Positions 1 through 22,895 of a stretch of DNA of 64,000 nucleotides are shown piece after piece. Each line of letters starts with the position of its first letter. The stretch's first letter is position 1. The DNA comes from a phage: the sequence record PZ738962.1; one strand, written 5' to 3'. The notes beneath the pieces are model-generated. The model ran no database searches, was not told the DNA's origin, and was given only the letters and a program-made list of their open reading frames with translations. The position numbers and the translations under genes were made by a program.

Positions 1-188
1 ACGTCAAGTCGAGCATAAATTCCTTTTCGACGCAGTGCATGATCTTCGGTATCATAATAAAATTCGTGTTTTAGAGTGTTAGCACGATCTACTAGATTGT
101 ATCCGTCATACATTGCTACCCACAAATCACAGATTGTTTCGACGCCAATTTGTGAGTGTGCATAGTATTTTAATTCAAGTTCTTTCAT
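1..188 (-). CDS. hypothetical protein, N-terminal part only (ORF runs off window start)
   Basis: ATG at 188 preceded by AAGGG; frame open to position 1 (MKELELKYYAHSQIGVETICDLW...); immediately downstream of rnh; no family recognised. Confidence 0.4.
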   Translation of the reverse strand, partial: MKELELKYYAHSQIGVETICDLWVAMYDGYNLVDRANTLKHEFYYDTEDHALRRKGIYARLD

Positions 189-198
189 ATATCAACCC

Positions 199-1146
199 TT
201 AGAACTCACCAATTTTCTGCAACATTTTAACTAACGCATTTGTTACAAAATAGTTATAAATTTTACCGCGTGGTGCTGGTTTAGATTTCTCCCATGCTAA
301 CAAAATTTCATATTCGATGTTATCAGGAATAAATTCAAAATCAATAAGTTCGCGGTTTTCGTCAAAGCGTCGTGCTTCTTCCTCTGTCATCAAAGACTTT
401 GGATCTTCGGCATCGAAAATTTGCTCTAACCATTTGGTTGCAATTGGTTTAGCTCGTTCTCCTTCCAGTCGTGAGATAATGAAATCACTACGGCACTTGA
501 TCGAAGCTACACCGTCTTTTGCGTCACCCTTAACACATTTTACCATAAGGTCTTTGTAAGGGCTACCATATTTGCATTTCTTCCATGCTTTCTGTACTGG
601 TGCCCACTGTTTCACATTTTTGTATTTGTGCAACTGTGTGTAGTCACCATCGCCGGAGTTGATTAGCACCTGGCGACCTTCTACAGAAAACTTTTTAGTT
701 AATACAGCGATTATATCATCCGCTTCAACTTTGTCAACCTTAATAACGTGATAAGGCATGTTCTCTTTAAACTCTTCGGTGATCTTATTGATCGCAGCAA
801 AGATCATCTCCCAATCACGCGGATCTGCGTCTCGTTTTTCCTTACGGTTGCGTTTATAGTAAGGTGCGATATCACGTCGCCAGTAACCTTTGCTTGAATC
901 AAAGGCAAGTACCGTAATTGGGTATTGCTCTTTGAATTTTGTCATATTATAACGCATGGTGTCAAGGATAAGATGACGGATCATACCTTCATTAATAGGA
1001 TCTTCCGGTTTAAAGGTATGTGAGATAGTAGCAATCATAAGCTGCGACATATCAATCAAATGCACACCTTCCGGCAGTTTATCTTCTGGATCATCGAAGA
1101 AATCATTAAGTGTAGCGGTCGTTTTTGTAAATGGGTTATACGTCAT
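199..1146 (-). CDS. rnh: RNase H (5'-3' exonuclease / flap endonuclease)
   Basis: 315 aa; long collinear similarity to T4 RNase H as recalled (GYWRRD, YKxNR, EADDxIAV, SxDGDxTQLHKY, GKIYxYF). Confidence 0.9.
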   Translation of the reverse strand: MTYNPFTKTTATLNDFFDDPEDKLPEGVHLIDMSQLMIATISHTFKPEDPINEGMIRHLILDTMRYNMTKFKEQYPITVLAFDSSKGYWRRDIAPYYKRNRKEKRDADPRDWEMIFAAINKITEEFKENMPYHVIKVDKVEADDIIAVLTKKFSVEGRQVLINSGDGDYTQLHKYKNVKQWAPVQKAWKKCKYGSPYKDLMVKCVKGDAKDGVASIKCRSDFIISRLEGERAKPIATKWLEQIFDAEDPKSLMTEEEARRFDENRELIDFEFIPDNIEYEILLAWEKSKPAPRGKIYNYFVTNALVKMLQKIGEF

Positions 1147-18975: not shown

Positions 18976-19302
18976 TTATTGTTCTACAGTATAACCGTTG
19001 TTTTCAAGCCATGCAATAACAATCTTCTCACCAATTTCATCGAGCATTTCATCAGATCCATATTCTTTGATGAAAATCGATGGATCGTTATTGCTTACTA
19101 CGTGCTGAATCACAACATGTTCAGGAATTGCGTCTAGTAGTTCGCTATGATCATACTCATTAACGATATCTTCAACACTAACATTATTAACCAAATCAAC
19201 ATCATCCATAGTCACAGTAACGCGACCGGACGGACGCAATGAATATTGGCTACTTTCAACTTCAACATGTGCACTTTCGCAAGTAACTTTCATATCAACC
19301 AT
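18976..19302 (-). CDS. hypothetical highly acidic protein (108 aa from ATG)
   Basis: ATG at 19302 preceded by CAGAGGAATTGATT; strongly Asp/Glu-rich. Confidence 0.5.
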   Translation of the reverse strand: MVDMKVTCESAHVEVESSQYSLRPSGRVTVTMDDVDLVNNVSVEDIVNEYDHSELLDAIPEHVVIQHVVSNNDPSIFIKEYGSDEMLDEIGEKIVIAWLENNGYTVEQ

Positions 19303-19316
19303 AATCAATTCCTCTG

Positions 19317-20309
19317 TTAGTAATGGCTAAAACCTTCGGTCACATCTTCAACCACATAGTAACGATGACAGCGCATTTTGGCATTTGCATAATCTTTCGG
19401 GATACTTACAACGTGACGCGGATCAACTTTGCATTTAATGATTCGGCCTCGTCCACCGCCATAGTGCGGAATATAGTGTTTCGCTGCAACGTGGAGGCCA
19501 TTAGAGCAAGTGCGATCATCATCTGGGTCCACGTCTTTACGCTTCATTTTAACCGTGCGACCTGGGCTATTATCAAACGTATGCGTAAAGAAATCTTTAT
19601 AATCAACATCAACACGTTTCCATGCATAGAAACAACCATCTTCCACGATCTCAATGTCGTTGTGCTCTAAGAAGTCAAATAGACGATCTACGGCCTTACG
19701 GCTAGGGTTTTTCTTGCACTTCTCAAAGAAGTTCAGATAGTGCGTATATGGCTTATTCTCTTTAATCGACTCCACAACTCGACGAGTCAGATTATTATCA
19801 AGAACAATATTATGATAATACACAATACCATTTTCGATACGGAAAGCGCCGTGATAATATACTTCAACCGCTTTCTTAATGTCAATCAGCGTAATTGCTT
19901 TAATAAAATCATTCTGCTTAATTGCTTCCAGTGCTTCATTAAAGTTAACATGTGATGGATCAGCAGTATAAACAATGTCACCACATGTAATAGTAATAAA
20001 CTTAGTTGAGGCTATGGCTACGATTTTTGAGGAAGTAGTCACGGGCTTTTTTGCGCGTTCACCGCCTTTTCCTTTACTGGTTTTACGGCGTGCTTTACGT
20101 TTTTCTAGTGCCTTGCGACCTTCCGCTACTGCGTCTTTCTGAATCAGTAATACACGGGAGGCAGTACGACGAGATACCCCAAATGCTGCCGCAAGTGCTT
20201 CGCGGGTAGTAAACTTACCTTCGCCCCACTGTTTAGCCAGTTTGATTTGTTTTTCAGAATCCAGGCATTGAACGTTACGGTCAGAGACGGTGATTTTTGC
20301 TTTAGTCAT
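19317..20309 (-). CDS. rIIB: rIIB protein
   Basis: strong similarity to T4 rIIB as recalled (DRLFDFLEHNDIEIVEDGCFYAWK, TFDNSPG, CSNGLHV, VDPRHVVSIP); N-terminal HTH; start at ATG 20309 (AGAGGA upstream). Confidence 0.9.
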   Translation of the reverse strand: MTKAKITVSDRNVQCLDSEKQIKLAKQWGEGKFTTREALAAAFGVSRRTASRVLLIQKDAVAEGRKALEKRKARRKTSKGKGGERAKKPVTTSSKIVAIASTKFITITCGDIVYTADPSHVNFNEALEAIKQNDFIKAITLIDIKKAVEVYYHGAFRIENGIVYYHNIVLDNNLTRRVVESIKENKPYTHYLNFFEKCKKNPSRKAVDRLFDFLEHNDIEIVEDGCFYAWKRVDVDYKDFFTHTFDNSPGRTVKMKRKDVDPDDDRTCSNGLHVAAKHYIPHYGGGRGRIIKCKVDPRHVVSIPKDYANAKMRCHRYYVVEDVTEGFSHY

Positions 20310-20371
20310 AGTATTCATTCCTCTATTAGTTGGGCGACTATCGCCGCCCGATTCACATCATTATACCAGAA

Positions 20372-20503
20372 TTATTTTGCTTCTACAACCTTGCGGATTG
20401 TGCGGTCTGATACATTATAGATTCGTGCCAGTTCGCCTTTAGTCAAGCCGCGAGCGTATTGTTTACGGATGGTTTCTTTCTGGATAGCGGTCAGTTTAGT
20501 CAT
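20372..20503 (-). CDS. small HTH protein (43 aa) resembling the rIIB N-terminal region
   Basis: MTKLTAIQKETIRKQYARGLTKGELARIYNVSDRTIRKVVEAK; AAGAGGTG SD; below track length cutoff; HTH pattern parallels rIIB residues about 20-55. Confidence 0.5.
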   Translation of the reverse strand: MTKLTAIQKETIRKQYARGLTKGELARIYNVSDRTIRKVVEAK

Positions 20504-20514
20504 AATATCACCTC

Positions 20515-22623
20515 TTAAAATTTAACATTCTTAACCAGTTTCATAAAGTCTTGTGCGCGTTTGTCGTTATGCAGAATACGATACCAGTTATCTACAATAT
20601 CATACAGTAACGGGCTATTCTCTTTAAACTTCGCACAAACTGCTTTAATTCGTTCGTTTGCTGCCGTGAATTTTTCATCACAAATCTTTTTAGTTTCTTC
20701 GTCCATAATCCAACGGGTGTGAAGGAGTAACTTGGAAACCACTTTATTATAATGACGACCGTACAGTCTGTCAATAAATTCTGGAACACAGCGTTCTAGT
20801 TCATCGTCATGAAACAACATAGTGATCACACCCAGATATTCGCCATACCCCAGATGATTGGTCTTAACCTTCTTAGCCAGACCAGCCAGCTTACCGCGAA
20901 CAAATTCTAGCGCACATTCCAATTGTTCGTCAACGAGATATTTTTGTGTCTCGTTTCGAGTAATAATATACTTTGTTACCCCGAAGTAGTCAAGCGCCGT
21001 GTGTAATGTATTTTCACTATGGATCGATTTACGACTACGGCTTTCGAATGCATCACCTACGCGGAACATGTGCAAGCCTGATAACTCGCGAATCTCTGCT
21101 GCTTTCATGTGATGGCTGGTTTTATGCCAACTGTCACCAATCTTTTCCATAATATACACGTTAGGCAGCTTGGGAGTAGCTTCACGTTGTGTACGCTCGG
21201 TCTTCTCCGGTTTAACTGCTTTAGCACGCAGATCATCGGCCTCGGACACTTTAATCACGGTCATTTCAGATTCATCATAATACTGTTTGATGTACTCGAA
21301 AGTCTCCATATGTTTTTCGTTGCGCTGACGGAACACCAGTACCTTTTTATTGATTCCGTATTCCTGGACCATGCCGTTAAGAGTCAGTGCACGCAGTTTC
21401 GGTTTATCGGTATCATCAATAAGACACGTAATATCTTCTTTATGCATCCATACAAAATGCGTAATGTTGTATTGACTGCTAACGAAAGCAGGGCGCAATT
21501 TACTGATTGTGTGACGAGTACGATACAGAGTATACACCTGACCTTCTACGTCATTAGGCGAATCTTTACCAGCATTCACAAACTTATTATAGATTGCTAC
21601 CGGATCATCCCATTGTCCGATCTTACCCATCTTGCTAATAATATTGCGTTGAGTCGATGAATACTCGCTCATAAATTGCGCAAGTTTACGCTCTGTTTTA
21701 ATGTTGGCGATCTTCTCTTTGACCTTTTCCAACATCATTTCATTGATTTCTGCAATGCGTTTTTCGATGTTCGCTTTAGTCTCAATTGACAAGTGAACTT
21801 CTTCACGCGATGGCATCAGGTCCAGATCACCCAACTCAAAATTAATGTAAATGGTCTGGTGCTGGCGGTTTACAGCTTCTAACCATGTTCCGCGAACATA
21901 TTCATACGGGATCGGATACTGAATCTTACCCATGATTGCATATACTACATAGGAATCGTTATCACGCCCATTACAAACATAATAATTATCAAAGCTAGGG
22001 AAATAATTAATTTCGATTGCATTGATATTAGGTTTGTGTTCCCCAAAATGACGCAGTACAAATTGCGCTTCTCGATGCCATGTCTGAATATCTTTTTCTT
22101 TCACCGGAATAGTGATTTTCAGACCATTGTCTTCATAGGTCGGTTCGTCGAAAATCTGCACCATTTTCGGCATAGAGTTTTGCACAAATGCCGTAAAGCC
22201 ATAAGCGCGACCATTGTAGTAGTTTACGATTGTAAAGGTGTCGGTGTAGCTATAAGCAGATTTCGCACCCAAACCAAAAGATCCGATATAATCATTAGTT
22301 TGGTCTTTTGTTGATTCAAAGTAAACCGTAAACAGTTGTTCTAATTCTTTCTTAGACGGAATACCAGTACCATAATCACGCACAGAAAAATACGGTTCGA
22401 TTGCAGTTGGTAAATGAATATCAAACGGACGATCTAAGGTTCCGGCTTCTTTGTGAGTGTCGGTAGCATTGCACGAATACTCACGGACGCAAGCACGTTC
22501 ACAATATTGATAAGTGTTCTTAGAAAGCACCATAAAAGCCTTGCTACTTGCTTTCAGTGAAAAATCAACCGCACCGCTCAAGTCACTGCCAAATACTTCT
22601 TCATTATCAATATGCATTTTCAT
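20515..22623 (-). CDS. rIIA: rIIA protein (GHKL-type ATPase fold)
   Basis: 702 aa; N-terminal ATPase-like motifs (DYGTGIP, GSFGLGAKSAYSYTDTFTI) and size/position as for T4 rIIA. Confidence 0.85.
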   Translation of the reverse strand: MKMHIDNEEVFGSDLSGAVDFSLKASSKAFMVLSKNTYQYCERACVREYSCNATDTHKEAGTLDRPFDIHLPTAIEPYFSVRDYGTGIPSKKELEQLFTVYFESTKDQTNDYIGSFGLGAKSAYSYTDTFTIVNYYNGRAYGFTAFVQNSMPKMVQIFDEPTYEDNGLKITIPVKEKDIQTWHREAQFVLRHFGEHKPNINAIEINYFPSFDNYYVCNGRDNDSYVVYAIMGKIQYPIPYEYVRGTWLEAVNRQHQTIYINFELGDLDLMPSREEVHLSIETKANIEKRIAEINEMMLEKVKEKIANIKTERKLAQFMSEYSSTQRNIISKMGKIGQWDDPVAIYNKFVNAGKDSPNDVEGQVYTLYRTRHTISKLRPAFVSSQYNITHFVWMHKEDITCLIDDTDKPKLRALTLNGMVQEYGINKKVLVFRQRNEKHMETFEYIKQYYDESEMTVIKVSEADDLRAKAVKPEKTERTQREATPKLPNVYIMEKIGDSWHKTSHHMKAAEIRELSGLHMFRVGDAFESRSRKSIHSENTLHTALDYFGVTKYIITRNETQKYLVDEQLECALEFVRGKLAGLAKKVKTNHLGYGEYLGVITMLFHDDELERCVPEFIDRLYGRHYNKVVSKLLLHTRWIMDEETKKICDEKFTAANERIKAVCAKFKENSPLLYDIVDNWYRILHNDKRAQDFMKLVKNVKF

Positions 22624-22637
22624 AATATAATCCTCAC

Positions 22638-22895
22638 TTAATTAAAATCTTCTTTGTCCATCTCTGCGTAGATTACATCCCACGCCCATAAATCAATAAA
22701 CGCATTATATGTCACGGTGCAATCGTTGTCAATCACTTCTTTCGCATATTTCTTGATGTTTTCGTAGGAAACTTGCGGGTCAATTTTGTGTTTACGAAGG
22801 TGCGCATATTCATATCTCAGACATTTCATAAACAGGTCCATCGATTTCTTTTCTCGATGACACTTGGCGATCATAAAATCAAAACTTCGACTCAT
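22638..22895 (-). CDS. hypothetical protein (85 aa)
   Basis: ATG with AAGGAG upstream. Confidence 0.5.
   Translation of the reverse strand: MSRSFDFMIAKCHREKKSMDLFMKCLRYEYAHLRKHKIDPQVSYENIKKYAKEVIDNDCTVTYNAFIDLWAWDVIYAEMDKEDFN

Follow-up and report, generated by a model that had tools for sequence, protein, structure and literature searches.

A conserved stand-alone helix-turn-helix gene between rIIA and rIIB of Krischvirus phages is related to the RIIB N-terminal domain

Introduction

The rII locus is a founding system of molecular genetics. In phage T4 the rIIB gene starts 11 nt behind the rIIA stop codon (TAAGGAAAATT), and its product carries one N-terminal helix-turn-helix (HTH) domain (residues ~7–45, the N-terminal part of the PHROG 609 region), which we take to be the classical B1 segment. 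Crick and colleagues are said to have found that B1 could be scrambled without loss of rIIB function, and this first segment of T4 rIIB tolerates both frameshift scrambling and the r1589 deletion, a tolerance which would fit a separable N-terminal domain. Against plasmid-borne RexAB, an r1589-like rIIA–B fusion was described as hypomorphic (PMC8594841). RIIB was put forward as a DNA-binding, specific transcription factor (PMC7824862), and a RegA operator is described for T4 rIIB (AAAAUUAUGUAC; PMC3014915).

In the T4-type phages RB49 and phi1, promoter-early stem-loop (PeSL) cassettes have been described, with a proposed role as drivers of modular shuffling (Arbiol et al. 2010, PMC2839356). 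The gene analysed here is on record in RB49 (RB49p274, PHROG 15481), and its public entries give neither a function nor a link to RIIB. Here we describe the rII locus in a 64-kb stretch of phage DNA, which we refer to as the window, where a 43-aa open-reading frame (ORF) of this family stands between rIIA and rIIB.

A small gene in the rII locus

The window comes from a Krischvirus, an RB49/Phi1-like T4-type coliphage: positions 19300–20700 share 99.9% identity with Escherichia phage FL15 and 98–99% with 58 further records, and all 59 matching records are RB49/Phi1-like T4-type phages of this genus. Genes are arranged on the minus strand in the order topoisomerase gene 39, several small ORFs, rIIA, the 43-aa ORF, rIIB, further small ORFs and gene 52. 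The rIIA gene (20515..22623, minus strand) encodes 702 aa with a GHKL-type N-terminus (phrog_612, E 4e-188), and the small ORF lies close behind its stop codon. The start of rIIB (minus strand; phrog_609, E 1.6e-106) is ambiguous: the first ATG, at 20318 (19317..20318, 333 aa), stands directly behind GAGGA; the second, at 20309 (19317..20309, 330 aa), is spaced by 9 nt and is used as the start in the RB49, KFS-EC and GEC-3S annotations. RIIB has an N-terminal HTH of its own (20142..20258, minus strand; residues 21–59 of the 333-aa form), apparently a diverged in-protein paralogue of the small ORF, and its helices are placed at residues 21–32, 39–45 and 50–59 in the RIIB model. The C-terminal region (19317–20033, residues ~96–333) gave a confident AlphaFold2 (AF2) model, mostly with pLDDT >90, for which Foldseek found no significant relative among solved PDB structures.

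Two further observations concern the surroundings. The phrog_609 profile ('RIIB', 1055 positions) is matched by rIIA residues 20–314 at positions 23–319 as well as by RIIB at 741–1051, so this family seems to contain natural or mis-annotated RIIA–RIIB fusions. Downstream of rIIB, a small ORF (19141–19233, minus strand) matched the Rfam ribosomal S15 leader at 25.5 bits (gathering score 39.5, E 0.006), which is probably a chance match.

The 43-aa ORF occupies 20372..20503 on the minus strand (translation MTKLTAIQKETIRKQYARGLTKGELARIYNVSDRTIRKVVEAK), exactly where the initial annotation had placed a stand-alone gene between rIIA and rIIB. Its ATG lies 11 nt behind the rIIA stop codon, and the intervening spacer (GAGGTGATATT, 20504..20514, minus strand) carries the Shine-Dalgarno sequence GAGGTG, bearing out the strong ribosome-binding site that had been noted. 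The ORF ends in TAA (20372–20374), followed by a 53–62-nt spacer and then by rIIB in a different frame, and nothing links its product covalently to the C-terminal domain (PF26926-type) of RIIB. Fusion of the small ORF to rIIB by read-through or frameshifting was considered and rejected, given the different frames, the intervening stop codons and spacer lengths which are not multiples of three across lineages. The initiation region (GGUGAUAUUAUGAC, 20498–20514, minus strand) has AUUAUG in common with the T4 rIIB RegA operator and lacks the poly(A).

The initial annotation was mistaken in calling this ORF unannotated. It is already listed as a hypothetical protein in the RB49, GEC-3S, KFS-EC and FL15 annotations, all of its public records bear that name (RB49p274/NP_891845.1, YP_009118959.1, YP_010097294.1 and XAO14331.1), and it matches phrog_15481, a 43-residue family with no function assigned, over 43/43 positions (E 3e-34). 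The gene is identical in RB49, Phi1, GEC-3S, KFS-EC and FL15.

An HTH had also been read in the translation, and this reading is upheld by both profile and structure prediction. Pfam CENP-B_N (PF04218) scored 26 bits on the small ORF, above its curated gathering threshold of 21.2; this match is a generic HTH signal and implies no centromere-protein function. Weaker, sub-threshold Pfam matches were to Sigma70_r4, HTH_28, HTH_7 and Mor. An AF2 model, built from an alignment with RIIB proteins, predicted a three-helix HTH with helices at residues 6–18, 22–29 and 33–41 (pLDDT 87.6), and the nearest structures to this model were the DNA-bound HTHs of the IS21 transposase IstA, Hin, gamma-delta resolvase and CENP-B, with TM-scores of 0.75–0.83 (0.79 for the CENP-B_N structure 1hlv), which alone are informative, as Foldseek E-values are not significant for a 43-aa query. 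The protein is basic, with 11 Lys/Arg against 4 Asp/Glu and a net charge of about +7 by direct count. A sequence search of the PDB returned HTH matches, none of them significant, NCBIfam and PADLOC gave only generic HTH matches below threshold, and Rfam had no match at the small ORF. The HTHs of Hin/resolvase, IstA, CENP-B and homing endonucleases are small modular DNA-binding units tethered to a catalytic or oligomerising domain; unlike them, the small ORF is free-standing, with no nuclease or recombinase domain nearby.

Selection on the small gene

The ORF is very short and annotated only as a hypothetical protein, as might be said of a chance ORF or a decaying fragment without function. Its conservation, however, effectively refutes such a reading. 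All 59 Krischvirus records with matching DNA encode the small protein at ≥95% amino acid identity, and a search at the protein level added four divergent relatives of 43 aa. Together with one contig found through an rIIB relative, the contigs of these relatives provided five metagenomic lineages, which with the Krischvirus of the window make six. The slot has the same order in all five metagenomic lineages: rIIA, a 4–11-nt spacer with a Shine-Dalgarno sequence, the small ORF, a 52–70-nt spacer and rIIB. Scans of the IMG/VR and JGI metagenomes with degenerate DNA patterns brought up the small ORF in Krischvirus proper only.

Across the divergent lineages, amino acid identity to the window was 73–86% for the small ORF, compared with 39–44% for rIIA and 54–63% for rIIB. 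Synonymous differences of the small ORF from the window were near saturation (pS 0.48–0.78), non-synonymous change was far lower (pN 0.08–0.22), and its start, Shine-Dalgarno sequence and length are conserved across lineages. Within the family, helix 2, the turn and helix 3 are invariant (TKGELAR.YNVSDRTIR.VVE), whilst helix 1 varies. The small ORF is thus a genuine gene under purifying selection, and its identity above that of rIIA and rIIB, its low pN and its invariant helices mark it as the coding unit under the strongest constraint in the locus.

Relationship to the RIIB N-terminal domain

The initial annotation proposed that the small ORF mirrors the N-terminal HTH of rIIB, possibly as a partial duplication of that gene. 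Aligned to the RIIB of the same phage the likeness is weak, though above chance. BLASTP of the small ORF against its own RIIB gave no match, so profiles were needed for this comparison; a local BLOSUM62 alignment to the own RIIB N-terminus scored 41, against 20.5 ± 4.3 for shuffled sequences, of which only 2 of 2000 reached that score. With hhalign, the small-ORF family matched the RIIB N-termini of this clade at 90.8% (E 1e-6), the alignment being confined to the 21 columns of helix 2, turn and helix 3.

The likeness is strong when RIIB proteins of other T4-like phages are used instead. Against their N-termini hhalign gave 98.9% (E 1.7e-17, 48% identity over 40 columns), and BLASTP against T4 RIIB residues 7–45 gave 41% identity (E 5e-4). 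The small-ORF HMM scored up to 33.5 bits on RIIB N-termini and 2.2 bits on the RIIB of the window phage. Conversely, a profile of RIIB N-termini from other genera, run against all six-frame ORFs of the 64-kb window, found two matches only, the small ORF at 43.8 bits and the own RIIB N-terminus at 27.2 bits. In a tblastn scan of 50,697 phage genomes, the nearest matches outside Krischvirus were several hundred RIIB N-termini, with 52% identity over 39–40 residues.

Judged by these profile comparisons, the small ORF is a homologue of the T4-type RIIB N-terminal HTH and belongs to the same HTH family, and the two are predicted to have a common three-helix architecture. The small ORF is not a recent copy of the neighbouring rIIB; it resembles the canonical RIIB N-domain of other genera more than that of its own neighbour. 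Of the two HTHs it is the more canonical, and the one attached to RIIB in this clade has diverged. Its position also corresponds to that of T4 rIIB, with an equal gap behind rIIA. Unlike the T4-type domain, it is made as a polypeptide in its own right, 43 aa long and ended by a stop codon of its own, unfused to the RIIB C-domain; it coexists with a second, diverged HTH still on RIIB, and it is more conserved than RIIB. The small ORF therefore fails one defining feature of an RIIB N-domain, covalent linkage to the C-domain, and matches it in every other respect tested.

Organisation of other rII loci

Of 60 diverse rII loci drawn from IMG/VR, ~52 have rIIA and rIIB abutting (gaps of −26 to +72 nt) with no ORF between them, so the ancestral state would be rIIA followed directly by rIIB with one N-terminal HTH. 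The few inserts in the remainder were unrelated ORFs or a single HNH endonuclease. This endonuclease, a 244-aa HNH-type homing enzyme, was found in a distant T4-like phage (L033:2655-3389, IMGVR_UViG_3300047548_000827), and two other distant phages, L040 and L077, had unrelated 56- and 66-aa ORFs in the slot. The small slot ORFs of L040, L077 and L024 were examined as counterparts of the 43-aa ORF and rejected, as they are not HTH proteins. In two sequences rIIB looks frameshifted, L026:21-975 (IMGVR_UViG_2700989062_000001), where the HTH part (21..281) is read in another frame than the C-domain (160..975), and L099 (MAVA01000030.1); these are either natural or laboratory rII mutants or sequencing errors.

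The number of HTH modules per RIIB also varies, with one in most proteins and none in distant ones. Two N-terminal modules occur in the 405-aa RIIB of a distant T4-like phage (L034:3258-4475, IMGVR_UViG_3300041411_000132), and three tandem HTHs (about residues 4–44, 59–105 and 146–190) in a 459-aa RIIB (L003:4685-6064, ENA ERZ27260015 k141_60519), which also has a free 43-aa ORF upstream. In the Krischvirus RIIB, the residues which lead into the HTH (ITxSDRNVQ) align with the linker preceding the third repeat of this L003 protein, as expected if the present rIIB start sits in a former inter-repeat linker. Of the proposed partial duplication of rIIB, then, the homology, the T4-rIIB start position and the variation in HTH copy number all speak in favour, whilst a recent origin from the adjacent gene does not hold.

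Related domains beyond the rII locus

A HMMER search of 1.84 billion representative proteins with the small-ORF profile gave 304 matches. The top ranks were taken by proteins made of 4–7 tandem copies of the same HTH type (P0077–P0090 in our library, 220–720 aa, with a ~45-residue module of the form LTxxQxxxIxxxYxxGxSxxELAxxYGVSxxTIxRI). The best single-domain scores (39–49 bits) belonged to C-terminal HTHs of HNH_3/NUMOD4, GIY-YIG and T5orf172 (homing-endonuclease-like) proteins: about 20 non-rII proteins in this range, mostly with HNH/GIY-YIG C-terminal HTHs, outscored the best RIIB N-terminus (33.5 bits), and the C-terminal HTHs of HNH/GIY-YIG endonucleases gave the highest single-domain sequence scores outside the small-ORF family. 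Against a hand-picked set of endonuclease HTHs, hhalign gave the small family a score of 108.6 (99.7%, 52% identity), compared with 75.8 against RIIB N-termini, a biased comparison, as likeness to the ORF was the criterion by which the endonuclease set had been picked out of 1.84 billion proteins. All three groups, the small ORF, the RIIB N-domain and the endonuclease HTHs, thus appear to belong to one broad family, whose 40-residue module is too short for a reliable tree; a direct parent is not provable from sequence alone, and as metagenomic homing-endonuclease HTHs are at least as similar, a local origin from rIIB is not proven.

These matches raise the alternative that the gene was acquired independently, as a domesticated HTH captured elsewhere, for example the C-terminal domain left by a free-standing homing endonuclease which once stood between rIIA and rIIB, or a moron borne by a PeSL-type cassette, in which case the likeness to RIIB would reflect no more than the shared broad HTH family. 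An HNH endonuclease does occupy the slot in one distant phage (L033), and a PeSL-type cassette, proposed as a mobiliser of ORFs in RB49/phi1 (PMC2839356), flanks the small ORF on one side. Yet the scan of 50,697 phage genomes, in which no matches were pre-selected, placed RIIB N-termini nearest and HNH endonucleases only at E about 7, and in a ranking by the canonical RIIB N-profile the small ORFs came before all of the 149 best library HTHs, those of the endonucleases included. The one endonuclease-HTH protein whose surroundings were checked lies in a temperate-phage context which is not T4-like, and between rIIA and rIIB none of the six lineages has an HNH/GIY-YIG ORF or fragment which could be the remnant of a nuclease. 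In every lineage, moreover, the small ORF begins at the first residue of the module, 4–11 nt behind rIIA, which mirrors the rIIB start and is not expected of a C-terminal remnant. We consider an independent acquisition unlikely, although it deserves to be kept in view.

The spacer between the small gene and rIIB

A predicted promoter (TTGTAG-N17-TATAAT with a TG extended −10; 20360..20388, minus strand) overlaps the last codons of the small ORF with its −35 and is annotated as a promoter in GEC-3S. This rIIB-proximal promoter-like element is absent from the list of the consensus scanner, since its −35 matches at only 3/6 positions and puts it below threshold. Just downstream of the −10 lies a GC-rich hairpin (GGGCGGC-GAUA-GUCGCCC; 20332..20349, minus strand) with a 7-bp GC stem and no U-tract, and 71 nt of this region fold at −18 kcal/mol (z −2.6). 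The spacer would correspond to one of the layouts described for the PeSL cassettes of RB49/phi1, an intergenic sigma-70-like promoter followed by a G/C-rich stem-loop, here with a weak −35 (TTGTAG); the ORF–rIIB locus is not mentioned in the main text of PMC2839356. A promoter-like element and a GC hairpin lie between the small ORF and rIIB in 6/6 lineages, with hairpins that differ in sequence and position.

Upstream, a perfect sigma-70 consensus (TTGACA-17-TATAAT), also a predicted promoter, lies inside the 3′ part of rIIA (20746..20774, minus strand), ~270 nt before the small ORF, and three other lineages (four with the window) have a similar near-consensus site at −223 to −261 of the small ORF. 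A second perfect 12/12 consensus promoter is predicted just upstream of rIIA (22704–22732, minus strand).

The second idea of the initial annotation was a small regulator acting on the rII locus; as an autonomous transcription regulator, the protein would bind an operator in or near that locus, such as the promoter over its own 3′ end, and would control rIIB or early genes independently of RIIA and RIIB. The HTH fold with its invariant recognition helix would suit this role, as would the −35 overlapping the last codons of the gene and the inverted repeat directly downstream; weak profile matches to Mor, sigma-70 region 4 and phage 'late transcriptional activator' families point the same way, and a role as a specific transcription factor has been proposed for RIIB itself (PMC7824862). 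The Pfam matches to regulator families, however, are all below curated cut-offs, and the 43-aa protein is predicted to be a monomeric three-helix unit without an evident dimerisation or effector surface. The adjacent hairpin was considered as the operator of the small protein and judged an unlikely one, because it differs in every lineage whilst the recognition helix is invariant, and no conserved candidate operator was found. The tight, conserved coupling to rIIA in turn suggests stoichiometric co-production, not a trace regulator. An autonomous regulator seems to us distinctly improbable.

Discussion

We favour the reading that the 43-residue basic HTH is a functional gene which arose as a free-standing paralogue of the RIIB N-terminal HTH by duplication and fission, and which acts in trans as an accessory to RII; we give this reading a probability of roughly 0.55. 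Its components differ in standing: the reality of the gene, purifying selection, homology and synteny are observed across lineages, the three-helix fold is well supported as a model, and the duplication-and-fission route, DNA binding and cooperation with RIIA and RIIB are what we infer from them.

The ancestral locus would have had rIIA directly followed by an rIIB built as HTH, linker and C-domain, like that of T4. The HTH-coding 5′ module of rIIB would then have been duplicated in tandem, and the first copy severed by a stop codon and a promoter/stem-loop cassette of the PeSL type. This detached copy would have retained its position, the ribosome-binding site 11 nt behind rIIA and the canonical recognition helix, and the HTH copy left on RIIB would have diverged. 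In the present-day phage the small protein and RIIA would be made in step from the rIIA message, and rIIB would be served by its own promoter. Binding DNA through the invariant helix 2, turn and helix 3, the protein may act in trans as an accessory subunit of the system formed by RIIA (a GHKL-type ATPase) and RIIB, taking on the task which in other T4-like phages falls to the RIIB N-domain in cis.

The detached copy has kept the canonical helix 3, which is changed in the RIIB-linked copy, and RIIB alone triggers a CARD/gasdermin defence which phages escape by loss of RIIB (bioRxiv 10.1101/2023.05.28.542683). Both observations would be compatible with a decoy or competitor, a free HTH which mimics the RIIB N-domain to titrate a host factor or an RIIB-sensing defence, or which modulates binding by RIIB. 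This idea is purely speculative, the sequence data do not separate it from the accessory-subunit model, and we think it very improbable.

A broader proposition, which we put forward tentatively and hold to be possible though doubtful, is that the RIIB N-terminal HTH is an autonomous rII module which was released in RB49-type phages as a third rII gene. The RIIB N-terminal HTH is able to exist, strongly conserved, as a separate protein, and this conservation argues that its function is independent of covalent linkage to RIIB.

The gene itself was already in the databases, as a nameless hypothetical protein and a PHROG; the literature we searched holds no report of it as a detached RIIB N-domain paralogue, of its exceptional conservation or of the duplication-and-fission picture. 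The detached RIIB HTH is an evolutionary twist in an iconic locus, not a new mechanism, and it would add domain duplication and gene fission to the processes shaping rII. For annotation, the Krischvirus-wide 'hypothetical protein' could be renamed as an RIIB N-domain-like HTH protein. Being tiny and tractable, the protein is also a convenient means of finding out to what the rII HTH binds. If the small protein is indeed the DNA- or sensor-facing subunit of a RIIA/RIIB complex, RII would act at the level of DNA, and its 43 residues would provide a way into the long search for the molecular target of rII.
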